Virus record (IMG/VR): IMGVR_UViG_3300012983_000002 | DNA length: 64,000 nucleotides | Strand: one strand, 5' to 3' | Source of the DNA: a virus | Taxonomy: Duplodnaviria > Heunggongvirae > Uroviricota > Caudoviricetes | Shown: piece by piece, positions 2,307-37,151 of the stretch | Position numbering within the stretch: the stretch's first letter is position 1 | How the letters are laid out: each line of letters starts with the position of its first letter | Translations under genes and position numbers: made by a program | The notes under the pieces: generated by a model | Databases searched by the model: none | What the model was told of the DNA's origin: nothing | What the model saw: only the letters and a program-made list of their open reading frames with translations

Positions 2307-4259
2307 TTAGTTAAGGGCTCCCTTATCTCCTGGCTTGATGATATGGGCCATGATCCAGTCTCTGAACTCAGGTCTTCCCTCCTTCTCCAGCGCTTCCCAC
2401 TTCTTATACGAATCATAGTGAACCATTATTCCACTCGAAGGTTCGTATGTATACCTGTTCCCTGATCTACAGAACGTAAATCCTGTAACGAAGTTATTAT
2501 CATACGTCAGCTCCCTGATAGGCTGTGCTGCAGATATCTCTGGTGAGCACCACTTTGTATTCATAGGAATATACATACCAACCTCAGCTCCTGGAGAGTC
2601 GGTTACGATGGCTACGTCCATACCTTTGTATTTGCTGAAACTCTCACGAACTGTAGATAACATATCTCCTCCTGCAACACTCTCTAGGGTATCAAATACA
2701 CGTACATAGTACTCGGCAGCTCCAGGGCCGGCTGTAGCGGCAAATGCTCCGAAATTAGATTTACCTGTAGCGTGAGCTGATCCTTCGTAATTAAGAACAG
2801 AGAATACAGAGTTATTGCGTCCAGATAAGATAGACATAAATCTCCAATACTCGTATCTATTCAGTCCTAGTTTACTATGACTGAGTGTTCTCATAGGTAT
2901 AGCATCAGAGGCCTTACCTGATGTTGTATATACTGTATTGTTCGAAGCTAGTCTTATAATGTGATCTATCATCACTGCAGGGAATACTAATGTATTCTCA
3001 CATGCTCCTGTTTTATCATAGCGCACAATAGACCTGTCCTGGGACTCGTCTCGCATACACACAGCAACACCCATAGAAATACCACTTAACGTAGAGCATA
3101 TATCTGATGGAAGTCTATCGTGGTAAGACATTGTAGATGCTAGATACAACGGATCATAGAAGTCATCATCGTCCATCTTCAGGTAAAAATCATAACCTTC
3201 GGGTACTTCAATGAAATTAATCACCTGAGATCTATTAGGAAGAGATGTGACCTTATGATGTACTGAGGTCAGCTCCAGATCAGCTCTGGTTTTAATAATA
3301 TCGTATGTAATCTTGTCACATCCTCGTACAACTATATGTACAGCAAGTCTGGAAGTATCCTTTACGTAACGCAACTGATCCTTTAAAGAAATTATCTGGC
3401 TTAGAAGTTGCATAGGACGGTTATAGCTAGACAACTGTATGCAATACCTGTAACCGTCTACCTTCTTCTTATGACCTCCTGCACGTACAAAGGCGTTAAA
3501 TGACAGTGTGCGTACCTTTAGCTTACCTGTAGCGGCAGCATATTCGAGAGCAGTATCTACTGGCATCCTGGTAGTACGGAACAGCTCTGACACTTTTCTT
3601 CTGGAATCATTAGATACAAACATAGCGTAAGTACCATCACAATAAGGACTAAGTCTGGTTCTCTCCTTACCAGCAGGCAGCTCTTCACTGACATTATCAG
3701 GAAGCTCTGTTATACACTCCTTGTCGTAGTCAAGATCTTCCAATTTATATCTATCATATGTATGTGTGTGAAATAGTCTTATTACGTCTGTATCCGGGTA
3801 TTCTGTGACTACTTTCTTAATAGCCCTATATAACAGCTTAGCGTCTACCATAGGTACAGCCCTACGCTCACATACGATATTGCCTTTTAAATCATTCTTG
3901 CAGATATGCATAATATCAAGAGCAAGCATCCAAGACATACGCAGGGAACGGATCTTTTCTTTTAATCCGTAAGCCTCTCCGTAATGCAGTTCTTCCGGTA
4001 TATAATTACCACCATCGTCAGAGTCATTAAGTAAAGACGCATCTGACCTCTCTGTGTATGGTATAGTAGGTACTAGTATAGGTTCGTACTGCAGCTGCTT
4101 ATACATGAACACCTGCTCCAGACGTTCTCCTTCGCTTACTAATATAGTTACAGGAAGCCTAGGTTCCTTGGCTTTCTTCTGTACTTCTACAAAACTATCT
4201 AATGTATTGAGGTATTCTTTCGCTGTATATAAGTTTGGCATGTAGTAATAATACCACAT
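2307..4259 (-). CDS. hypothetical protein (650 aa), possible virion/morphogenesis protein
   Basis: Long uninterrupted ORF tightly packed with neighbours. No diagnostic motif recognised. Confidence 0.55.
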   Translation of the reverse strand: MWYYYYMPNLYTAKEYLNTLDSFVEVQKKAKEPRLPVTILVSEGERLEQVFMYKQLQYEPILVPTIPYTERSDASLLNDSDDGGNYIPEELHYGEAYGLKEKIRSLRMSWMLALDIMHICKNDLKGNIVCERRAVPMVDAKLLYRAIKKVVTEYPDTDVIRLFHTHTYDRYKLEDLDYDKECITELPDNVSEELPAGKERTRLSPYCDGTYAMFVSNDSRRKVSELFRTTRMPVDTALEYAAATGKLKVRTLSFNAFVRAGGHKKKVDGYRYCIQLSSYNRPMQLLSQIISLKDQLRYVKDTSRLAVHIVVRGCDKITYDIIKTRADLELTSVHHKVTSLPNRSQVINFIEVPEGYDFYLKMDDDDFYDPLYLASTMSYHDRLPSDICSTLSGISMGVAVCMRDESQDRSIVRYDKTGACENTLVFPAVMIDHIIRLASNNTVYTTSGKASDAIPMRTLSHSKLGLNRYEYWRFMSILSGRNNSVFSVLNYEGSAHATGKSNFGAFAATAGPGAAEYYVRVFDTLESVAGGDMLSTVRESFSKYKGMDVAIVTDSPGAEVGMYIPMNTKWCSPEISAAQPIRELTYDNNFVTGFTFCRSGNRYTYEPSSGIMVHYDSYKKWEALEKEGRPEFRDWIMAHIIKPGDKGALN

Positions 4260-5649: not shown

Positions 5650-5740
5650 AAATGAAAGTATACAGTAATTACCACTTATACAAAAGAGAGGATACGTTTC
5701 CCAACGTACCCTCTCTGTAATAAATTATGAGATTAAACCT

Positions 5741-5934: not shown

Positions 5935-6543
5935 TTATGCGTGATGAGAGTTGATATAATCTTCCAGAGCAATATTTACTTCTTCCTCAGTCTTCGCTGC
6001 ATCGATAGCAGCCCAACATACCTGCTTTCCTTGCTGTAAGGCAGTCTCGTGAGCTGCCAAATCTGCGTAAATTTTCTGAATATCCTCAGTAGATAGAGGA
6101 GCTACCGTCTGACCGTCGGCAAATTCATAATAAGTCAAGCCTCCCATCAACAGACCAGCAAGAAGATAAATATTATCCTTCTCAGTGTGCATCACAGCAT
6201 ATCCTTCCCTATAGCTAGGAACATCTACTCTGTGTGTATGCTTGCGAACGTAATCGAGATGTGCCTGTGCTTTATCCTTAGCGGCCTGGCGACACTCCGA
6301 TGTTACATAACCGTAATACGCCTCCGGATCTGCCAGAATAGCATCTTTATCGAGCACGTCTGTCTTCTCCCAGAAAATATACTGGTCGCCTTCCCAACTC
6401 TTGCGAGGAGTTTCTTCTTCGCCAGATGGCTCTTCCTGGTGCTCGGTAACGTTAATAGTAATAGTAACCTGAGTACTACCATTAAAATCGTAGAATACTA
6501 CAGGTGCCGGCTCTTCTGAAAAATTAGCGTGCTGCTTGCGCAT
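5935..6543 (-). CDS. hypothetical protein (202 aa), immediately downstream of the DGR RT with a 20-bp overlap
   Basis: ORF overlaps the RT stop, suggesting translational coupling. Its acidic N-terminus makes it unlikely to be Avd. Confidence 0.5.
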   Translation of the reverse strand: MRKQHANFSEEPAPVVFYDFNGSTQVTITINVTEHQEEPSGEEETPRKSWEGDQYIFWEKTDVLDKDAILADPEAYYGYVTSECRQAAKDKAQAHLDYVRKHTHRVDVPSYREGYAVMHTEKDNIYLLAGLLMGGLTYYEFADGQTVAPLSTEDIQKIYADLAAHETALQQGKQVCWAAIDAAKTEEEVNIALEDYINSHHA

Positions 6544-7669
6544 AATGAGAAATAATGTTTGATGCTCTACTGAACGATTTTATAGCATTAAGAGCTCTTT
6601 GTACATACCTTGTCGCAGCCGAATCCATGTATCCTTTATACGACATAAGTCTAAGGGACTGTCTTAACGACATAACGCCTCCCTTAACTTTAATAAGTAG
6701 CTTTCTTGCCTTTCTGAATATATGCTTGCGCAGCGTAACCAATCCTCCTGGAGATACTCGGAAACCCATCATGTCTACTGGGTGTCGTTTAGTAATTCTA
6801 TGAATCTGCCACGAAGGTTTTATCATTAGGTGTAATACAGAGGCCGCTCTCTTGGTAATAGCTTTTATCGCTTTGCACAGACTCCTTTTATTTGTACCTA
6901 TAAATAGCATGTCGTCCATGTAGAACAGAGTACGCTTTACCTGGTTATTACGCTTACAGGATCTCTTAGTAACACACTCCTCCTTTGCGAAGTGATAAAG
7001 ATCAGACAAATATATGTTAGCTAACGTCTGGCTAAGAAAACTACCGATAGCCATGCCCCTTGGTACAGAATACACTAGCTCACGTATAAGCCACATTAAG
7101 CGATCATTGCATATTCTTTTCTCCAACCAAGCCATCATGCAATCCCTATCCACAGAACCATAAAAGTCCTTGATATCTAATTTAGTAGCGTATAGCTTAT
7201 GATCCGAACTCAGCCACTTCTTTATAAACTTGATACCATAATGAGCACCGCGTCCTTTGATACTACTGACTTGAGTTACACCTATGCGCTTACATACCTC
7301 ATCAAGAGCCAGAACAGCTATATGATCAAACATAAGCTGTCTTATACCTAATACAGATATCTTTCTAGACTTGCCGCTTCCTGGATCTATTCTTATTACT
7401 TGCTTGGGTGTGGGTAGGCCTAAATCCTCACCAGACAATAAAGTATCCTGTAGATCCTTGGCTATAGAAAAACAAGCATCAAAGTACTGCTCGCCTCTAT
7501 GCTTAAGAATGCGAGCTACTTCTTTTCGCGAACAATTTGGTAGATATTTCTTAAACAGATGTACCGTATCGTGTCGCCGCCTTTTTCTGCTAGGCGCAAA
7601 ACACTGAAGCACTGCTCTGAGAATAAGGTCCCCATCGCAAATATCTACATTCTTACACTTACGTTTCAT
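6524..7669 (-). CDS. reverse transcriptase, diversity-generating retroelement type
   Basis: Catalytic motif FYMDDMLFIG (YxDD). The upstream motif GMAIGSFLSQTLANIYL carries the IGxxxSQ signature typical of DGR RTs rather than the QGxxxSP of group II intron RTs. It is adjacent to the TR and two VR-bearing genes. Confidence 0.85.
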   Translation of the reverse strand: MKRKCKNVDICDGDLILRAVLQCFAPSRKRRRHDTVHLFKKYLPNCSRKEVARILKHRGEQYFDACFSIAKDLQDTLLSGEDLGLPTPKQVIRIDPGSGKSRKISVLGIRQLMFDHIAVLALDEVCKRIGVTQVSSIKGRGAHYGIKFIKKWLSSDHKLYATKLDIKDFYGSVDRDCMMAWLEKRICNDRLMWLIRELVYSVPRGMAIGSFLSQTLANIYLSDLYHFAKEECVTKRSCKRNNQVKRTLFYMDDMLFIGTNKRSLCKAIKAITKRAASVLHLMIKPSWQIHRITKRHPVDMMGFRVSPGGLVTLRKHIFRKARKLLIKVKGGVMSLRQSLRLMSYKGYMDSAATRYVQRALNAIKSFSRASNIISHYAQAAR

Positions 7670-7860
7670 TCGTTAGTGATTTTGACCTTCAGAGCTTTTC
7701 GCCTGAGCTACTAACCTCTGTGTCCATTGGTCATTTGTATTTTGACTCCGTTCGGAGGGAGGCTGTGACTTTTAATGTTACAGGCGGAAAGAATAAATCT
7801 TTCCCGCGATATGACTCCATAAATTACAGGACAAGTCCTGCAAAACTATTTGCAAAATTG
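7670..7860 (-). ncRNA. DGR spacer RNA region between TR and RT start, with predicted hairpins
   Basis: Non-coding 190 bp between the TR and the RT ATG. It contains short stems (ctccgttcggag; caggacaagtcctg). By analogy with the Bordetella DGR, the TR-adjacent RNA primes cDNA synthesis. Confidence 0.45.
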
Positions 7861-7959
7861 CGGGCGCAGATGTTCCAGTTCGCGTTCCCAAGACCGTTGT
7901 TGAGGTTCAAGTAAGCAGATCCAGCGTTCGTACCGTTGTTCAGGTTACCGCCAGAAAGG
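7861..7959 (-). repeat. DGR template repeat (TR), about 99 bp
   Basis: About 99 bp homologous to the 3' ends of ORFs 8079..10292 and 10403..12640. Every mismatch falls on a plus-strand T (template-strand A). The TR read in the target frame contains about 10 AAC codons. Confidence 0.85.
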
Positions 7960-8026
7960 AACAATCGCTTCGAAATCATATCCCTAAAATTTTCTATATC
8001 CTATTAGTAACTACAAGTGGATCCTC

Positions 8027-8085
8027 TCGAGGGGTAGGAGCTCTGCCCCTCCCCCTCGAACTCCCCCACCCCGATGGACTAATCA
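8027..8085 (-). promoter_or_regulatory. IMH-like GC-rich element plus hairpin downstream of VR2
   Basis: This 59-bp flank is identical to 10351..10409. The minus-strand reading gtgattagtccatcggggtgggggagttcgagggggaggggcagagctcctacccctcgag contains a 9-bp stem ctcgagggg/cccctcgag. It is absent at the TR flank. Confidence 0.6.
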
Positions 8086-10292
8086 CGGGCGCAGAAGTAC
8101 CAGTACGCGCTCCCAAGACCGCCGTTGAGGTGCAAGGAAGCAGATCCAGCGTGCGGACCGTTGACCAGGGAACCGCCAGAAAGGAACTCCTTAGCCTCAT
8201 TAGTACTCACGTAGAACTTATCACCATGTCCCTCCTGATCAGACGAGCTACCTACCAGTACAGGATAAGCGACACCATTCCAGGAGATAGTCTCGTTATA
8301 GATGAATTTATCTGAAACAGTACCATCCACTACTCCAGAAGGCACATATCCAGCCGTTATCCATGGGGACAATGTATTAGATGTACTGCTCAGTCTAGCT
8401 TTACCATCAGGACATGTAAGGATTACCATCTGACTTGTTGCTGGAGTGATAGAGACTCCATCAATAGTAAGAGCAGTAGATCCATCTCCCTTTACAGCTA
8501 CAGTATCTCCTGCGCAAATGTAACCGCCAGGCATGTACTCTGTACCTTGTACGCGATATGGATGTTTTTGATTTGTAAGAGATGTTACAGACCCGTCGTG
8601 CATTCCAAGTACTCCTGTTCCGCTTACACCACCATTCATCGTCTCTCCACCAAGAGAGAATCCTTGACACGCATATGCACAATACTGAACATCACTACCC
8701 AGGGCGTCCTGATCTGCCTTAGTAGTAACAACAACGAAAGGTTTGACAGGGAATGCTGTATTGTTGGCAGGATCAATTCGCAAGCACAGCTGTCCTGAAT
8801 CACTCTTGATCTCTGCAGTAGGATCAGTCAGATCATACTTAGCAATTTCCGCAATACGCACATACTGTGTAGCATTAGTAGTCGTATATCCGAATGCCAT
8901 AGCATTTCCGATAAGTGCAGCGCTGCCAGCAGAATTATAGCCATTCAAGCAGACTGTACATCCCACCTCGAATGCTCCCTGACTGGAGATAGGGAACAGA
9001 TAACTAGGGGTAGTAATAGCCGCAGCAGCCTTCACAGCGTTTTGGTTATTCTGCGACATACCAGTATGGATCTGCTGTGAGTTCTTATTAGCATTCTTAA
9101 CAATATCAAACAGCATACCGAATGCATTCACGCATGCCTTACCTGGATTAGCAGCGGCCTGATTTCCGAATGCGATAATGTTGTTATAGCTAAGGTTGTT
9201 TCTGAGAGGAGCGTTGAGCTTAGATACCAGACCCTGCGTACTTGTCGAATCATAACCTCCACAGAAGGCAGAATGACACCAATAAGGACGAAGTACAAAT
9301 GAATTGGTAGAAGCATCCCACACCTGACAGGAAGGCCACACATGGAAGTCTTCCTCTGTAAGACCGTGAGCCTCTAATTCGGCGATAGTATCAGCATCCA
9401 GTCCCTCGTATGTAATACCATCAGATACGACAGTACTCCAGGGGGAGTCTGAGATTACCCAGAGCTGTGAGATAGGGGATCCGTTCTCTGTTCCGTCTGC
9501 AGTCAGCCATGTACCGTCTGCTTGCTGGAACTTCTCCGTCTTTACAGCAAACCAGAAGATAGGACCGAATGCAGCAATGTTCTGAGTCTGATCGAATGCT
9601 GGGATATTAAACGTACCAGAAGGTGTAGCAACAGTACCTCCTGTTACACCTCGAATAGCTGTAATGTGCTTTACACCGTACTCGTCCTTAATGTAGTTTC
9701 CGTACTGCCAGTAGAACACCCATTCCTTACCAACATAATCATCTACGCCAAGCGCAGTATCGGTAGAGCAGGCGTGATTAAGATTTTCATTAGCCCACAG
9801 CTTAGCTGTCATATTATTGGCAAAGAAATTACCAGCAGCTGAAATAGTAGGCGCTACATTAGCTACAGCTCCGCTCGCATCCTTGTAAGCGTACGGTACA
9901 CGAGAACCATATACACGTCTAGGAGCTGCTGCCAGAGGGTAATTAGGCTGAGCTACTGCCTTATAATATTCATTGAAATAATTAACTGGGATAGCTGTAC
10001 TAGGAACGGCTGTAGTAGGATAGGTCGGAGCGTCTGCTGCCACATCAGCAAAAATCTGAGCAATCTGATTAAATTTTTCATGCTCAGCTGCTGTAAGATG
10101 TACGGTAGTATTCTGCTCGTGTTCCTGCAGTGAGGTACTCTGATCACCGATGGCCTTAATAACATCAGCCCCGTTTACAGACAGCCGTCCGGCCACTGTT
10201 GCGTCTCCTGTTACAGAGATATTCTTAACAGAGAGTACTGTAGTGTTTACAGTATCTGCTGTCACAACTCCTCGAGAAATTTTTACACTCAT
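8079..10292 (-). CDS. DGR target protein 2 (737 aa), putative receptor-binding/tail fibre protein with a C-terminal variable domain
   Basis: Paralogue of 10403..12640, with shared motifs YWCHSA, LFDI(V/I)K(N/T)ANKN, RVQGTEYM and a C-terminal ...CARD. The VR occupies the last ~35 codons, and a C-type-lectin-like variable region is expected. Confidence 0.8.
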   Translation of the reverse strand: MSVKISRGVVTADTVNTTVLSVKNISVTGDATVAGRLSVNGADVIKAIGDQSTSLQEHEQNTTVHLTAAEHEKFNQIAQIFADVAADAPTYPTTAVPSTAIPVNYFNEYYKAVAQPNYPLAAAPRRVYGSRVPYAYKDASGAVANVAPTISAAGNFFANNMTAKLWANENLNHACSTDTALGVDDYVGKEWVFYWQYGNYIKDEYGVKHITAIRGVTGGTVATPSGTFNIPAFDQTQNIAAFGPIFWFAVKTEKFQQADGTWLTADGTENGSPISQLWVISDSPWSTVVSDGITYEGLDADTIAELEAHGLTEEDFHVWPSCQVWDASTNSFVLRPYWCHSAFCGGYDSTSTQGLVSKLNAPLRNNLSYNNIIAFGNQAAANPGKACVNAFGMLFDIVKNANKNSQQIHTGMSQNNQNAVKAAAAITTPSYLFPISSQGAFEVGCTVCLNGYNSAGSAALIGNAMAFGYTTTNATQYVRIAEIAKYDLTDPTAEIKSDSGQLCLRIDPANNTAFPVKPFVVVTTKADQDALGSDVQYCAYACQGFSLGGETMNGGVSGTGVLGMHDGSVTSLTNQKHPYRVQGTEYMPGGYICAGDTVAVKGDGSTALTIDGVSITPATSQMVILTCPDGKARLSSTSNTLSPWITAGYVPSGVVDGTVSDKFIYNETISWNGVAYPVLVGSSSDQEGHGDKFYVSTNEAKEFLSGGSLVNGPHAGSASLHLNGGLGSAYWYFCARD
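8086..8184 (-). repeat. DGR variable repeat VR2 (3' end of target gene 2)
   Basis: 14 mismatches versus the TR, all at TR adenines. Confidence 0.85.
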
Positions 10293-10350
10293 GATATGTA
10301 TTTCGTTATATTTTGCGTTAATAAATTTGTCAATATAAGATTAGAGGCCC

Positions 10351-10409
10351 TCGAGGGGTAGGAGCTCTGCCCCTCCCCCTCGAACTCCCCCACCCCGATG
10401 GACTAATCA
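10351..10409 (-). promoter_or_regulatory. IMH-like GC-rich element plus hairpin downstream of VR1
   Basis: Identical to 8027..8085. Confidence 0.6.
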
Positions 10410-12640
10410 CGGGCGCAGATGCGCCAGGACGCGTACCCAAGACCGCCGTTGAGGCCCAAGCAAGCAGATCCAGCGTACGTACCGAAGTTCAGGCTACCGC
10501 CAGAAAGGTATTCATACACTCCCTTATTATTACTGCGATAGTAATAATCACCGAAACTATTACTAGAACTGGCACCCTGGCCTATGCTGAGTGTTACGAA
10601 TCCACCAGACTCTGACAGTGTTCCTTGGGCAACATAACCCTCAGTTATAGGACACATGGTCTGCACCTTATATCCAGCATTAATCCAATTAGACACAGTG
10701 CCAGCTCCATTATTAATACGTTTAACATGAGCAGGACAATTAAGGATCATGTAACGTTCTACTCCAGGCTCATTAGTATAGTATTCTCCATTAATCTCTA
10801 TGGGTGTTGTACCGTCATCTCTTATAGCAATCATGTCGGACGATACAGTCCAGGCTCCAACCATATATTCTGTTCCCTGTACTCTGAACGGATGTCTACC
10901 ATTAGTGAGATTAGTACATGCTCCGTCTGTTTTTCCAAGTACAGCATCAGTCTCCCCAGATAGTGCAAATCCCTGTTGAACATAACAGCATGCCCTTACT
11001 CCGGCAGCTTGTAACTCAGCACACGCCTCTTCGGTAGTTCTTACGAGGAATGGTTCAACTGTACCCGGATCTAATACGATACACGGAGCTGTTACTGTAC
11101 CGGCATCTACCGTATCGAACGTACGTAATTCCACAGCACTTATTCTCCCTATCTGTGTCTTTGCTGATCTGCCATTAGATACTCTTAAGATACCTCTATA
11201 CTTAGCCTTAGTAGAATCAACATACATAACACTCTCCAGGTATACTGTGCAGTGTTTCTCGAATTGCTTCTTGGCCTGATCTGCTGTGCCTATCGGGACT
11301 ATATAATCGGCAGAAGCAGTGTTATATGTAGGTACAGCCTTGTATGTTAAATTATCTGTAACGTTCTGATCGTTACTGTAGTTATTGCTCATACCAGTGT
11401 GATAGGCCTGTGTATTCTTATTAGCAGTCTTAATAATATCAAACAGAATCGGGAATCCTGTAATACATGCTGCAGTTCCTCCTCGATTAATAGAAGGGTA
11501 TACTCCACCTACAGCAGCACCATATGCAGCATTAAGGTGATTGTAGGAAAGATTGCTTCTACGAAGAGGAAGATTAGGTTTAGACACAATAGGTCCTGTT
11601 CCTGCCTCATTCTCGGCTCCTGCAAAATAAGCAGAATGGCACCAATACGGGCGTTCTATATACGTGTCGAGGGTAGAGTCATAAACAAGACACTCGGGCC
11701 ATATACGTAAATCTGAGGCCGTTATACCGTGAGAATAAAGTTCCAGGCGTTTCTCATCACTCAACTTATCCCACGGAGAATCAGATATACCCCATAGCTG
11801 AGTAATTGGTTGTCCTGTTTCTGTACCGTCATCTGTAGTCCATCTCTGAACTCCATTAGAGTCAGTGAACTTGTATAGCTCTGTTTTAACGAAGTACCAG
11901 AACTTAGGTCCGAAAGCACATACATTCTTATCTCTACTGAATACTCTACCCGTCTTAGGAAGATCTTTAACAGCAGTAATATGCTTATTACCGTCCTCGT
12001 CAGTAATGTAATTAGCATGTCCCCACCAGAACGCCCATTGCTTTCCTACGTAATCATCTACTCCAGGATTGGTATCTGTAGCGTATGTATGATTGAGGCC
12101 GGCATTATCCATCAGCTTGGCTTCCAGCTTAGCCTTATCAAACTTGGCTATTGGTGTATTAGCTGGAATGCTTGCTATGGAAGACATCAGATAAGTGGAG
12201 TCGAAATTAGCAGCTCCATCTACTTTCTGAGGATAAGGAACTCTGGATATGTAAACCTTACCTGGAGCCTCGTATACTCCCTTCTCTGCTCGATTAGCGA
12301 AGAAGTCATTAAAGAATTGCCAGGAATAAGAACCTGCTGGTAGACGAGGAGGTACAGTGGCTGTAGGAGTAAGCTTACCTGTATTATCAAAAGAGAACCG
12401 GGAAGTTATATTGTTAAAGCTTGTTCTCTCTTGACCAGTGAGATGAACTACTGAATCTGACTTGTGTGACTTCGTACCATCAGCCAATTCTTCGATATGT
12501 TCTCCTACCTTATATTCACCGTCGGTAGGTGTTCCTATGATTAGTTCTCCTTTTACACCCATATTACCTTCTAAGTCCAACGAAGGTCGAGTAAGAGAGT
12601 CTGATAGAATAATTGTTTCTGCATTTAGATCTGCTGCCAT
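10403..12640 (-). CDS. DGR target protein 1 (745 aa), putative receptor-binding/tail fibre protein
   Basis: Paralogue of 8079..10292 with a diverged N-terminus. It ends ...GGLGYASWRICARD, with the VR at its 3' end. Confidence 0.8.
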   Translation of the reverse strand: MAADLNAETIILSDSLTRPSLDLEGNMGVKGELIIGTPTDGEYKVGEHIEELADGTKSHKSDSVVHLTGQERTSFNNITSRFSFDNTGKLTPTATVPPRLPAGSYSWQFFNDFFANRAEKGVYEAPGKVYISRVPYPQKVDGAANFDSTYLMSSIASIPANTPIAKFDKAKLEAKLMDNAGLNHTYATDTNPGVDDYVGKQWAFWWGHANYITDEDGNKHITAVKDLPKTGRVFSRDKNVCAFGPKFWYFVKTELYKFTDSNGVQRWTTDDGTETGQPITQLWGISDSPWDKLSDEKRLELYSHGITASDLRIWPECLVYDSTLDTYIERPYWCHSAYFAGAENEAGTGPIVSKPNLPLRRSNLSYNHLNAAYGAAVGGVYPSINRGGTAACITGFPILFDIIKTANKNTQAYHTGMSNNYSNDQNVTDNLTYKAVPTYNTASADYIVPIGTADQAKKQFEKHCTVYLESVMYVDSTKAKYRGILRVSNGRSAKTQIGRISAVELRTFDTVDAGTVTAPCIVLDPGTVEPFLVRTTEEACAELQAAGVRACCYVQQGFALSGETDAVLGKTDGACTNLTNGRHPFRVQGTEYMVGAWTVSSDMIAIRDDGTTPIEINGEYYTNEPGVERYMILNCPAHVKRINNGAGTVSNWINAGYKVQTMCPITEGYVAQGTLSESGGFVTLSIGQGASSSNSFGDYYYRSNNKGVYEYLSGGSLNFGTYAGSACLGLNGGLGYASWRICARD
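10410..10508 (-). repeat. DGR variable repeat VR1 (3' end of target gene 1)
   Basis: 14 mismatches versus the TR, all at TR adenines, plus one boundary mismatch. Confidence 0.85.
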
Positions 12641-12762
12641 ATTTTCTATTATAGTTAATTATCTCTACGAGGATAGCACGGAGATGTGGTAGATAAAAGA
12701 AAGACACCCTCTCCTGTACTTGACGGAGAGGGTGTGTAGATTATATTGATGAAGATTAGTAA

Positions 12763-13272
12763 TTATCCGTAGATGAAATCAGGGCCTGTTGTTGCCGAGT
12801 TGTAGAACGGCTTTTTACTCACGGTGTCGAACATACAGGGCTTGCCATTCGGGTCTAGGCATGGAACGAAATTGTGAACCACCTCGGTGCCTTGCGATAT
12901 AGATACTTCATAAATGCGGCATCCTCCATTATTGGCCATCGCACCCGAATTATTAAATGCAAATAAATATGCACTATAGCCGATTGATTGTGGTATATCA
13001 CCCAGAGTCGCTGATATTATGTTTCTGTCACTTTGGGCTACAAATATAACCGATCTGCTATTCAGCCAGTTTAGCTCACTTCTGTATACGGAACCCCACT
13101 CACCTTCTGAAAGTGGGAACTTAAACCAGTCATCCCAGCCGTAGCCTATATCCAAAAGTGTCGGATTCGGCGGATAATACCTCGGCCTACATGCCATCCA
13201 CCTTAAATCCAACTCGACGTTTTTCGCAGCGCAAACATCATAATCAGCGGATGTTGTTGCTTGGGCAACCAC
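12763..13272 (-). CDS. hypothetical protein (169 aa), fibre-associated?
   Basis: ORF directly upstream (minus sense) of the DGR targets. Confidence 0.45.
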   Translation of the reverse strand: MVAQATTSADYDVCAAKNVELDLRWMACRPRYYPPNPTLLDIGYGWDDWFKFPLSEGEWGSVYRSELNWLNSRSVIFVAQSDRNIISATLGDIPQSIGYSAYLFAFNNSGAMANNGGCRIYEVSISQGTEVVHNFVPCLDPNGKPCMFDTVSKKPFYNSATTGPDFIYG

Positions 13273-34849: not shown

Positions 34850-34920
34850 TACCCTCGGACGGTAACGATCCGCCTCTCTCAGTGTGTAAAACTGATTTGC
34901 TACCTTTACAACACAAGGGC
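34850..34920 (-). tRNA. candidate tRNA-Val(TAC) with a non-canonical T-loop
   Basis: Hand-folded cloverleaf: acceptor GCCCTTG/CGAGGGT, anticodon stem TCAGT/ACTGA with loop TTTACAC, but T-loop ATCGTTA instead of TTCGAAT. Intergenic. Needs tRNAscan confirmation. Confidence 0.4.
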
Positions 34921-34995
34921 TACTCTTACCCAAGTTGCCATCGGTTCAGGATTGGTTACCTGATTGTATAGTTACCGACGGACTTGGATCATTAA

Positions 34996-35070
34996 TTGCG
35001 GAGGAGGGATTCGAACCCACGACCTCCAGGTTATGAGCCTGGCTAGCTACCTGACTGCTAACACCCCGCG
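34996..35070 (-). tRNA. tRNA-Met(CAT), initiator-like
   Basis: Resembles bacterial tRNA-fMet (CGCGGGGTG...CTCATAA...GGTTCGAATCC...CCGCAA) with a C1:A72 mismatch. Confidence 0.7.
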
Positions 35071-35121
35071 ATTGCTAATTAAGAATATAATAAGCTTTGG
35101 GTGTAGAGTCAACAATAAAAA

Positions 35122-35361
35122 TTAATTTTTTATAGATACATCAACAATAACATCACCTTCATCCACAAGCTGTAATAATTTAGCCTGTTCAATACCGACC
35201 AGCTTAGCTACAAATGGTGTCATGTTCCATCCATAGCAAGTACTGATCTCACCGGTAGAAGACTTAGTGTAAGCTCCTAATTGCATAGTATCTCCCTGGA
35301 CTACGAGCTCAATTGAGAAAATCCCATCGCCTTTTTCTTTTGATTTAAGTGTAATTTTCAT
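35122..35361 (-). CDS. small hypothetical protein
   Basis: 79-aa ORF. Confidence 0.45.
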   Translation of the reverse strand: MKITLKSKEKGDGIFSIELVVQGDTMQLGAYTKSSTGEISTCYGWNMTPFVAKLVGIEQAKLLQLVDEGDVIVDVSIKN

Positions 35362-35362
35362 G

Positions 35363-35956
35363 TTAACCTAAATTATATTTTTCTACAATTTTAGTTGGTA
35401 CATCTTCAGGCCACCTATCCAACATATACTTAAGCTGATCCTCTGCAGGTTCTCCGAATCTATCGTAGCGTAAACAATTCTCAGGACCACAAGCAGCGAC
35501 AAGCATAGCTTGATTAAAGAAGTACTCGTCGCATACGGATTCCATATAACTTACCGACGTATACATCTCATCGCGCTCCTTACTAAGACGTTCAAACTCC
35601 TTCAGATAGGCTATCCTATCTGTAGGCATACAAAGAATATGATAGACCCTATTACTTCTAATAAGACCATGCATGGAGTGTAAGAACTTGCTGGCGTTCT
35701 TTACTACAGGAACATCGGATGCAGCAGAATACGCGTAATTAGACATAATGTATCTATCTACGAGTACACCGCCATACCGCAACGCGTTATCTGCCTCTGC
35801 AAACTGAGCATACATAGCTTCAGGATCCTTAATGTATGTCAGATGCATATACTGAAGCTCTAACGCTTTACATAACTTCTTAGCCAGGGTAGTCTTTCCT
35901 GATCCGTCCGGGCCTTCCAATACTATTGCTGGTTTTTTATCTCTTGCCATAAACAA
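35363..35956 (-). CDS. tmk: thymidylate (dNMP) kinase
   Basis: P-loop LEGPDGSGKTT at the N-terminus. Size and layout fit dTMP kinase. Confidence 0.65.
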   Translation of the reverse strand: MFMARDKKPAIVLEGPDGSGKTTLAKKLCKALELQYMHLTYIKDPEAMYAQFAEADNALRYGGVLVDRYIMSNYAYSAASDVPVVKNASKFLHSMHGLIRSNRVYHILCMPTDRIAYLKEFERLSKERDEMYTSVSYMESVCDEYFFNQAMLVAACGPENCLRYDRFGEPAEDQLKYMLDRWPEDVPTKIVEKYNLG

Positions 35957-35984
35957 AAATAGCGACCTGTTATGGTCGCTAGAA

Positions 35985-36056
35985 CATCCCCAAGCGGAAT
36001 CGAACCGCTGTCGCAGGAATGAAAATCCTGTGTCCTAACCGCTAGACGATGGGGAC
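35985..36056 (-). tRNA. tRNA-Glu(TTC)
   Basis: GTCCCCATCGTCTAGCGGTTAGGACACAGGATTTTCATTCCTG...GGTTCGATTCC. Close to canonical bacterial tRNA-Glu. Confidence 0.75.
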
Positions 36057-36061
36057 ATTAA

Positions 36062-36133
36062 CGAACCATATCGGAATCGAACCGATGTATCCGCAGGGAC
36101 AGTGCGGTGTACTAACCACTGTACTAATGGTCC
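36062..36133 (-). tRNA. tRNA-Asp(GTC)
   Basis: Acceptor GGACCAT/ATGGTTC, D-stem GTAC/GTAC, anticodon loop CTGTCCC, T-arm ATCGG-TTCGATT-CCGAT. Confidence 0.75.
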
Positions 36134-36143
36134 TTTTATATCA

Positions 36144-36214
36144 AGCGGATAACGGGAGTCGAACCCGTCTAGTAAGCTTGGAAGGCTTCTGCATTACCGA
36201 TATGCTATATCCGC
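36144..36214 (-). tRNA. tRNA-Gly(TCC)
   Basis: Acceptor GCGGATA/TATCCGC, anticodon loop CTTCCAA, T-arm ACGGG-TTCGACT-CCCGT. Confidence 0.7.
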
Positions 36215-36263
36215 GCAATAACATTACTATAAAATATAAAACTATAAATACAATAAAATAAAT

Positions 36264-37013
36264 TTAAATTTCATGTATAAACTTATACGCAGCACTTATC
36301 GCCCATTTTGGATCTGAACAAACACTCTTCCAGGGAAGTCTTAATACCCTCCACCCAGAGACTTCGATGTGCTTATCTTTACGCTTATCCCTGTCCATAT
36401 ATTCTTGAAACCTATAATGCTGATCGCCATCTATCTCTATGCATTTCTTTCTGTGCTCCCATGCAAAGTCTAAAGAATAAATACCAAGAGGATATTCGCG
36501 AACATAACACTTATCATCAAACTCATTTTCTATCACCCTCATAAACCATGTCTCAGGCCAGGACGGGGAGTTATTGTGTCTGGAGCTTCCGATATTATGA
36601 GCCCTACCCTCGGCGTGAGCTCTTTTCATGCTCTCTGATATTTTAAATTTTGTCTCCTCGGACAGTTTACAACCAGTCCTTTTCTTTATGCATCCATCAG
36701 CATAACGCATCTTATAAGTAGCCGCCGATTTAGCAACAGATACACTTGTAGACTTAGTCAATCCTTTATTCCATATGCCTGCTGTATTACGGTGCTCTTT
36801 TCTTACATGTTCGTATAAAAGTTTGCGCGTCCTGAAACACTCCCCGCAATGCACGCATTTCCATCTACCAGGCTCAGCCGCTGGTGGGGTTTTAAAATTA
36901 CACTTATGGTTGCGAGTTTTGCTTGCCGCGTACTTAGTAGCACAAGACTTAGAACAAAACCTGCCAGAACCGAAATCCCCACAGTGCTCTTTTTCGCAAA
37001 ACTCACAAACCAT
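36264..37013 (-). CDS. zinc-finger plus DUF559/Vsr-like PD-(D/E)xK endonuclease (homing-endonuclease-like), adjacent to the tRNA cluster
   Basis: N-terminal Cys clusters (CEFCEKEHC...CSKSC; C2H2-like CVHCGECF...HVRKEH). C-terminal YSLDFAWEHRKKCIEIDGDQH, matching the DUF559 D...E(I/V)DG pattern. Confidence 0.6.
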   Translation of the reverse strand: MVCEFCEKEHCGDFGSGRFCSKSCATKYAASKTRNHKCNFKTPPAAEPGRWKCVHCGECFRTRKLLYEHVRKEHRNTAGIWNKGLTKSTSVSVAKSAATYKMRYADGCIKKRTGCKLSEETKFKISESMKRAHAEGRAHNIGSSRHNNSPSWPETWFMRVIENEFDDKCYVREYPLGIYSLDFAWEHRKKCIEIDGDQHYRFQEYMDRDKRKDKHIEVSGWRVLRLPWKSVCSDPKWAISAAYKFIHEI

Positions 37014-37026
37014 AATAACTATCTAC

Positions 37027-37097
37027 CTCCCCCGCCAGGTAACGATCCTGGCCTAACGGATTAACAGTCCGCTGTGCATCCTCTACACCTCAGGGGA
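37027..37097 (-). tRNA. candidate tRNA-Asn(GTT) with a non-canonical T-loop
   Basis: Acceptor TCCCCTG/CGGGGGA, anticodon stem GCGGA/TCCGT with loop CTGTTAA, T-stem CCAGG/CCTGG with loop ATCGTTA. Intergenic. Needs confirmation. Confidence 0.4.
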
Positions 37098-37151
37098 ATA
37101 TCAACTAATGCTCTTAAAGTATTACAGAAACATTTTTAAATGTAAACACTA

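Follow-up and report, generated by a model that had tools for sequence, protein, structure and literature searches.

A G-rich box and hairpin beside both variable repeats of a phage diversity-generating retroelement: a putative acceptor signal for retrohoming

The retroelement locus

A 64,000-nucleotide (nt) stretch of a virus of the class Caudoviricetes, IMG/VR record IMGVR_UViG_3300012983_000002, was analysed in this study (hereafter the window). The window encodes a diversity-generating retroelement (DGR) with one template repeat (TR) and two variable repeats (VR1 and VR2), and the same GC-rich flank, containing a predicted hairpin, follows both VRs. The structure, conservation and possible role of this flank are the subject of this work. 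The locus is identified as a DGR because of the motifs in its reverse transcriptase (RT), the TR/VR mismatches at adenine sites and the position of the VRs at the 3' ends of their target genes. The motif [I/L/V]GxxxSQ is a signature of DGR-type RTs, and its form in the window RT is invariant in an alignment of 34 homologues.

The cassette is arranged, 5' to 3' on the minus strand, as target gene 2 with VR2, target gene 1 with VR1, TR, spacer and RT (Table 1). A gap of 118 nt separates VR1 from the TR, the stretch from the TR to the RT gene has 190 nt, and the distance from VR2 to the TR is 2.4 kb. Both VRs stop 5 nt short of the stop codons of their genes. The 16th VR/TR mismatch in each VR is a C/T difference directly after the GC-rich repeat end, and the differences between VR1 and VR2 fall at TR adenines. 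The C-termini of both target proteins match phage tail-type PHROGs.

Table 1. Features of the DGR cassette, in order of window coordinates.
Feature	Position	Strand	Basis or remarks
DGR-type RT, 381 amino acids	6524..7669	-	Pfam RVT_1, 1.4e-10; PHROG 1423, 8e-55; IGSFLSQ and YMDD in translation
Spacer from TR to RT, presumably 3' part of DGR RNA	7670..7860	-	190 nt
Conserved spacer motif GGTTAGTA, about 25 nt past stem-loop	TAGTA at 7709-7713	-	Sequence
Spacer stem-loop CTCC-GAAC-GGAG, then TCAAAAT	7739-7757	-	Sequence
Downstream arm TGGAGTCATATC of TR-bracketing duplex	7808..7819	-	Pairs with 7971-7982
TR	7861..7962	-	3' end CTGCGCCCG common to both VRs; then CAATTTTGCAAATAG..., AT-rich, without box or hairpin
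Upstream arm GATATGATTTCG of TR-bracketing duplex, between hairpin 1 and TR	7971..7982	-	Pairs with 7808-7819
Identical 70-bp block, copy 1: invariant VR1 3' end, stop codon, G-box, hairpin	8026..8095	-	Exact identity
Hairpin 1: TCGAGGGG-G-AGGGGC, AGA loop, GCTCCT-A-CCCCTCGA	8027..8059	-	DNA and RNA folds
Canonical G-quadruplex motif GGGGTGGGGGAGTTCGAGGGGGAGGGG	8046-8072 and 10370-10396	-	Only two in the 64-kb window, either strand
G-box GGGGTG, copy 1, then GGGGAGT (8060-8066); between stop codon and hairpin	8067..8072	-	Sequence
TAG stop codon of target gene 1; protein ends ...CARD*	8079..8081	-	Open reading frame (ORF) list, sequence
Target gene 1, 737 amino acids, tail-protein-like	8079..10292	-	ORF list; PHROG matches
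VR1, 3' end of target gene 1 (8079-10292)	8086..8187	-	Mismatches to TR: 15 at adenines, 1 elsewhere
Identical 70-bp block, copy 2: same content after VR2	10350..10419	-	Exact identity
Hairpin 2, identical to hairpin 1; 58 nt upstream of start codon of the VR1-bearing gene	10351..10383	-	Sequence, fold
G-box GGGGTG, copy 2	10391..10396	-	Sequence
TAG stop codon of target gene 2	10403..10405	-	ORF list
Target gene 2, 745 amino acids, paralog of target gene 1	10403..12640	-	ORF list; 37% amino acid identity
VR2, 3' end of target gene 2 (10403-12640)	10410..10508	-	Mismatches to TR: 15 at adenines, 1 elsewhere

The shared flank and its predicted hairpin

A preliminary description of the window reported 59 identical bp after the two VRs (8027-8085 and 10351-10409). 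This identity was confirmed and extends to a maximal block of 70 bp. Identity between the two modules is 1.0 in the flank, 0.67-0.9 in the VR and 0.2-0.37 immediately outside. These sharp borders, together with the 37% identity of the host proteins, indicate that the repeated unit is exactly the VR plus its flank. In the sense direction, each flank reads ...CTGCGCCCG / TGAT TAG TCCATC GGGGTG GGGGAGT TCGAGGGG G AGGGGC AGA GCTCCT A CCCCTCGA G, where the slash marks the end of strict TR/VR identity; the G-box thus begins 6 nt past the stop codon. The G+C content of the flank is 64%, compared with 43% for the window. With up to three mismatches allowed, the 33-nt hairpin sequence occurs at only two sites in the window (0 expected, 100 shuffles), and an energy-based scan for GGGGT[GC] plus a hairpin on both strands of all 64 kb returned the two flanks only.

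The second flank copy is known from the window contig alone. A near-identical IMG/VR contig (L001), the only match of a target-protein scan, ends at window position 10327 and so stops 24 nt short of the second flank. Contigs of relatives frequently end in or next to the VR/TR repeats, as do those of L001, L144, L150, L152 and L154. The contigs of closer RT relatives (P0003, P0006, P0012 and P0001) also break at or near these repeats and contain no VR flank.

The flank was predicted to fold into a stable 33-nt hairpin with an 8-bp outer stem (six G-C pairs), a 1x1 internal loop (G/A), a 6-bp inner stem (AGGGGC/GCTCCT, with one G.T pair) and an AGA triloop, altogether a 14-bp interrupted helix. 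The preliminary description had proposed a 9-bp stem after a GC-rich tract. A GC stem is indeed present, but the perfect outer stem (TCGAGGGG/CCCCTCGA) has 8 bp and the inner stem had been overlooked. The 5' arm given there, CTCGAGGGG, was incorrect; the actual arm is TTCGAGGGG, and a ninth outer pair arises solely as a T.G pair in the VR2 copy. The predicted folding energy of the 33-mer is -13.7 kcal/mol as sense DNA, -9.8 kcal/mol as antisense DNA and -24.5 kcal/mol as RNA (z = -4.1; 0/200 shuffles as stable). The 81-nt DNA region reaches -19.3 kcal/mol (z = -2.7; 0/200 shuffles as stable). The hairpin starts 26 nt past the shared CTGCGCCCG, 21 nt past the last alignable base and 19 nt past the stop codon.

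In the DGR of phage BPP-1, the initiation of mutagenic homing (IMH) site consists of a (GC)14 tract and a 21-bp element with a counterpart, IMH*, in the TR (PMC3240598). According to this paper and to PMC5758913, IMH is the 3' end of the VR itself and opens with a GC tract common to the TR, and IMH* is similar but non-identical. As in IMH, the GC-rich CTGCGCCCG at the VR 3' end is the same in TR, VR1 and VR2, with all variable sites located 5' of it. An IMH role here fits CTGCGCCCG together with TGATT in the VRs versus CAATT in the TR. The GC tract of the window is 9 nt long rather than 14. BPP-1 IMH and IMH* are a 21-bp near-repeat with five differences, whereas VR and TR in the window agree at only 3 of the 5 nt that follow the tract and lose all similarity thereafter (about 9/26 matches). 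After CTGCGCCCG, the VRs read TGATTAGTCCATC... and the TR reads CAATTTTGCAAAT..., with chance-level similarity beyond the first 5 nt. The earlier label of the flank as IMH-like is therefore not appropriate, as the G-rich tract and hairpin lie downstream of the IMH position and have no TR counterpart. The earlier view that the flank is VR-specific and that an AT-rich flank follows the TR agrees with the TR/VR alignment and the folds, in which the TR flank is unrelated beyond about 5 nt and forms no hairpin.

Related retroelements and paralogous target genes

From RT homologues and their alignment, 168 loci (designated by L numbers) were gathered from IMG/VR, GTDB genomes, metagenomes and Logan/ENA contigs, and TR/VR pairs were detected by self-BLAST with an adenine-mismatch filter. 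The GGGGT[GC] box is present in all 30 unique VR flanks of the RT clade of the window (RT amino acid identity approximately 28-76%), starting 0-27 nt past the end of the detected TR/VR alignment. A GC hairpin lies within about 10 nt of the box in nearly all 30 flanks. Among the collected loci, DGRs with more distant RTs have no box. The element stays with the VR where the VR-TR gap is about 500 nt (L067, L149 and L153) and, for VR2 of the window, 2.4 kb.

MAFFT alignment of the box and hairpin from 20 lineages misaligned the variable-length stems; a loop-anchored table was used instead. In this table, 22 distinct hairpins occupy the homologous position with differing paired sequences. The stems of relatives, with pairing kept, include CAGGGGC/GCCCCTG, CCGC/GCGG, GCCGGGC/GCCCGGC, ATGCCGGG/CCCGGCAT, TCCGC/GCGGA, CACGGC/GCCGTG, GCAGGGGC/GCCCCTGC, TGCCGGGC/GCCCGGCA, TATGCCGGG/CCCGGCATA and TTTGTGGG/CCCACAAA. 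Their loops are mostly 3 nt long and closed by C-G (AGA, AGC, AGT, GGA, GAA, GCA and TCT). The nearest lineages, L146 and L155, have compound hairpins of different sequence, as in the window. More distant clade members have GGGGTGAAT, a variable hairpin and a second hairpin, GAGGGG-nnnn-CCCCTC, whose stem is the outer-stem sequence of the window.

A strict scan for the box plus a perfect hairpin on both strands of 1.45 Mb of loci gave 40 matches at VR ends and 7 elsewhere, and three of the latter are VR ends at contig starts or VRs missed by the detector. A looser energy-based scan was less specific in GC-rich relatives (41 matches versus 37). Scanning IMG/VR for the outer stem with a free inner region returned 12 unrelated hairpins and L001, with no intermediate window-type variants. 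In L041, a second DGR on the contig has the VR flank ACTCCCC-TGAC-GGGGGAGT TTGAGGGGGT-CGCG-ACCCCCTCAA (10474-10520), which has GGGGGAGTT[CT]GAGGGGG...CCCCTC[GA]A in common with the window flank.

In the diverged locus L144, the flank is identical at 59/59 positions, compared with 88.5% identity of the TR, 82.6% of the spacer and 78.7% of the RT gene at the nucleotide level (RT 76% at the amino acid level). At a background identity of 88.5%, the chance of 59/59 is approximately 7e-4. No other piece of the cassette is as conserved as the flank, which, judging from this comparison, is under purifying selection. The identity of the two copies in the window therefore does not come from recent conversion alone. 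The preliminary description had offered gene conversion or strong selection for this identity; the cross-lineage comparison shows selection, and conversion between the copies may also have taken place. A mere footprint of recent duplication or gene conversion of the VR module, with a flank that has no function, would account for the sharp borders of identity (1.0 inside, 0.2-0.37 outside). It would not account for a flank unchanged in L144 despite 12-21% divergence of TR, spacer and RT, or for an architecture kept down to about 28% RT identity with changed stem sequences, and we regard it as highly improbable.

Three lineages, L155, L146 and L153, each have two paralogous target-like genes, and in each the box and hairpin are present on the RT-proximal copy only. 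The proximal copies have 1, 1 and 0 non-adenine mismatches to the TR, respectively, and the distal copies, where the element is absent, have 11, 7 and 16. VR1 and VR2 of the window, both with the element, have one each. The TR-like end is kept in the distal copies (L155, ~4160-4240; L146, ~600-720; L153, ~3680-3790). The distal and active copies of L155 and L146 are identical across the GC end and the stop codon and for about 9 nt more, and part exactly at the expected start of the G-box. In L146, the distal flank TGGAGGTGCCCAG looks like what a deletion has left of GGGAGGGGGTGCAGG. Because retrohoming restores the TR sequence at non-adenine positions, the distal copies have the appearance of decaying former VRs that are no longer overwritten, although their IMH-like ends are intact. 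The comparison lends support to the idea that a gene may need more than an IMH-like end to remain a DGR target. It is correlative and in line with what the BPP-1 experiments predict.

The hairpin could instead be a transcription terminator or 3' stabilizer of the target mRNAs with no specific role in retrohoming. A strong GC hairpin 19 nt past a stop codon, at -24.5 kcal/mol as RNA, resembles a Rho-independent terminator, and in L056 and L068 a T-run lies 7 nt after the homologous hairpin. However, no T-tract follows either copy in the window (GAGAGGATCC and GGGCCTCTAA follow the stems), a terminator scan calls neither site, and copy 2 is only 58 nt upstream of the next co-oriented gene. The motif occurs after no other gene in the window; the generic terminator shared by many genes that the preliminary description had considered was thus not observed. 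A canonical terminator is found elsewhere, at 5685-5716 on the minus strand downstream of the RT and DUF4376 genes, with a 14-bp stem followed by TTTGTAT and an unrelated sequence. A canonical terminator distinct from the VR hairpin, with an 11-bp stem followed by TTATTT (GCAACGGGAGTT...ACTCCCGTTGC), is present about 50 nt past that hairpin in L067 (~6230-6275) and at the equivalent positions in L149 and L153. The conserved G-box and the link with clean VRs are also left unexplained by termination. For DGR inverted repeats in general, the same conclusion was reached by Wu et al. (2018; PMC5758913). A terminator role is therefore unlikely.

The DGR RNA was also considered. A 12-nt duplex brackets the TR, and equivalents with different sequence occupy the same relative positions in L146, L155, L002, L003 and L056. 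By analogy, this duplex looks like the upstream/downstream 'cPRT Stop' duplex of many DGR RNAs (bioRxiv 10.1101/2023.10.23.563531). Two features of the spacer are found again in all close relatives (L002, L003, L056, L067, L146 and L155), a stem-loop with AAAAT after it and a GG[CT]TAGTA motif. Both are candidates for parts of the DGR RNA that act in RT binding or priming. We infer a likeness of the spacer elements to RNA elements in the same bioRxiv report. The flank itself might be such an RNA element, an upstream segment required for RT binding and cDNA synthesis, with the VR2 copy as a gene-conversion passenger. The VR flank of most relatives is only 70-120 nt away from the TR, on its upstream side, where it could be co-transcribed, and RNA on both sides of the TR is required for cDNA synthesis in BPP-1. 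Complementarity between flank and spacer exceeds that of shuffled controls in a few relatives (L013, L014, L155 and L067), but in the window it is at chance (z = 0.38). The TR has its own covarying bracketing duplex, with the upstream arm about 5-23 nt before the TR. As this arm lies between hairpin 1 and the TR, the RNA core needs no hairpin. The box and hairpin adjoin the VR even at VR-TR distances of 500 nt to 2.4 kb, and an intact IMH-like end does not keep paralogs clean where the hairpin is absent. An RNA role of the flank is very unlikely. Guide pairing between spacer RNA and VR flank, of the kind formed by exon- and intron-binding sites (EBS/IBS), was rejected for the window on an ungapped test (z = 0.38; mean z approximately 1 over 16 lineages); RNAduplex gave unrealistic output with huge interior loops.

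A putative acceptor signal for retrohoming

In BPP-1, a hairpin/cruciform 4 bp after the VR, with an 8-bp GC stem and a GAAA loop, is needed for efficient homing (Guo et al., 2011; PMC3240598). IMH plus hairpin are enough to retarget a heterologous gene. The structure of the stem matters rather than its sequence, the loop's length and sequence are critical, and stem extensions are tolerated with decreasing activity. In related phage DGRs, the stem measures 7-10 bp, the loop is GRNA and the hairpin lies 4-34 bp away (PMC3240598). In the catalogue of Wu et al. (2018; PMC5758913), 127 of 372 DGRs (34%) have GC-rich inverted repeats after IMH, which are mostly not terminators. The hairpin rule of myDGR (PMC6602519) asks for a stem of 7-10 bp, a GRNA loop of 4 nt and a spacing of 4-34 bp.

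Compared with these characterized elements, the window hairpin is at the BPP-1 position, just past the TR/VR homology and after the stop codon of the target gene, and its distance of 21-26 nt falls within the published 4-34 bp. As in BPP-1-type hairpins, stem sequence varies among relatives with pairing kept. The inverted repeats of PMC5758913 have the same position and class and likewise mostly lack T-tracts. Unlike in BPP-1, a conserved GGGGT[GC] box precedes the hairpin of the window clade. The published myDGR rule (PMC6602519) would not call the window hairpin. In the available parts of PMC5758913 and PMC6602519, no description of a clade-wide G-box or of tandem or nested multi-hairpin layouts was found. 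The 'Tentaclins' paper (PMC10743442) was set aside, as it concerns protein beta-hairpins and not DNA hairpins.

Collectively, these results suggest that the flank is probably a cis-acting acceptor signal of the phage DGR, that is, a hairpin/cruciform target-recognition element in a clade-specific variant. By analogy, it is also likely to work like the BPP-1 element. The element is classed as a variant because it lacks a canonical loop, and it would represent an expected DGR component in clade-specific form. The anatomy of the locus, the restriction of the element to two sites in the window, the adenine pattern of the mismatches, the conservation and the association of the element with clean VRs are observed; we infer hairpin or cruciform formation in vivo, the strand or molecule recognized and a requirement for homing. 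In the proposed mechanism, the RT (6524-7669) would copy the TR RNA into adenine-mutagenized cDNA that overwrites VR1 and VR2. The acceptor would have three consecutive parts: the common GC-rich 3' end CTGCGCCCG, where mutagenesis would stop; the VR-specific TGATTAG, 6 nt and GGGGTG box; and the GC-rich hairpin, which may extrude from supercoiled or single-stranded DNA. Together these would mark a segment as a VR and distinguish it from the TR, in parallel with the need for IMH and a hairpin/cruciform demonstrated by experiment in BPP-1. The TR is proposed never to be overwritten because it lacks the box and hairpin. With the same module on both target genes, one RT and one TR could diversify two tail-like proteins.

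Several observations weigh against this interpretation. The window loop is a 3-nt AGA and not a 4-nt GRNA, although loop size and sequence are critical in BPP-1, and the stem has 8+6 bp with an internal loop and a G.T pair rather than 7-10 bp; the outer stem by itself, at 8 bp, falls in that range. The antisense hairpin is about 4 kcal/mol weaker owing to the G.T pair of the inner stem, a poor fit to a symmetric cruciform. Most relatives' hairpins are perfectly symmetric in sense and antisense stability, and so do not discriminate between hairpin and cruciform. Hairpin formation is predicted, and the apparent conservation of stem pairing was read from the hairpin table. The stems of most close relatives are G-rich on the 5' arm, and part of the stem conservation may reflect sequence or composition rather than pairing. 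The paralog comparison covers only three lineages, in which VR decay could have preceded hairpin loss.

The G-runs of the flank raise the further possibility that the element is mainly a G-quadruplex (G4) or a G4/hairpin switch on the sense strand (GGGG-T-GGGGG-AGTTCGA-GGGGG-A-GGGG). Once folded, the G-runs would keep the duplex open beside the VR, and would stall replication or expose DNA into which the cDNA could integrate. With a motif defined as four runs of at least 3 G with loops of 1-7 nt, the two flanks are the only canonical G4 motifs in the window. A comparable series of four runs, spaced by loops of 1, 4-7 and 1 nt but differing in sequence, is found in the L146 and L155 flanks and in no other relatives, and the sense strand is the better hairpin former. 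However, the motif is present in only 5 of 30 unique clade flanks (three distinct sequences: the window with L001 and L144, L146, and L155), compared with a G-box in every flank and a hairpin in nearly all. In addition, runs 3 and 4 double as the 5' arm of the hairpin, and the G-richness may follow from a stem with G and C segregated between its arms. No paper linking DGRs to quadruplexes was found in the literature searched. A role mainly as a G4 is quite unlikely. For the subclade of the window, L146 and L155, it is conceivable, at a low likelihood, that the acceptor is a bistable sense-strand element, either a compound hairpin or a four-run G4, and not a symmetric cruciform. Such a structure would make a single-stranded or stalled-replication state by the VR, at which the antisense cDNA would anneal and replace the resident strand. 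If true, the bistable element would provide a concrete, testable physical mechanism for cDNA integration.

Other genes around the cassette were also inspected. No ORF lies between VR1, the TR and the RT, and no Avd-like accessory gene was recognized, as none of the neighbouring proteins matches Avd in Pfam or PHROGs. A 202-amino acid protein with a weak DUF4376 match (5935-6543, minus strand) overlaps the RT stop codon by 20 nt. A DUF4376-like protein of 198-203 amino acids directly follows the RT in relatives too; it may serve this clade as an accessory factor, or be no more than a tail component. Six tRNA genes are clustered at 34850-37098 on the minus strand (Val-TAC, Met-CAT, Glu-TTC, Asp-GTC, Gly-TCC and Asn-GTT). 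An E-value-based Rfam search of positions 6000-13000 detected no family, and megablast of the cassette against phage records gave no match. The relatives found by protein search with the RT against phage records all share at most 37% identity and are mostly unannotated.

Of the steps of mutagenic retrohoming, the one by which the cDNA locates its target and takes its place is understood least, and functional data come from few model elements. The element on its own is an expected DGR component; its interest comes mainly from the paralogs compared here and from an unusual combination of box, triloop and G-runs. The clade offers a recognizable acceptor signal that departs from the canonical rule, with a triloop, a compound stem and an additional GGGGT[GC] box. 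Annotation rules such as the hairpin search of myDGR would miss signals of the window type. A natural comparison of paralogs with and without the signal is available within the clade. The borders of the module can be drawn by the identity between two otherwise diverged genes, and the minimal transplantable module of approximately 165 bp, containing VR homology, GC end, box and hairpin, would be useful for engineering DGR-based targeted diversification.

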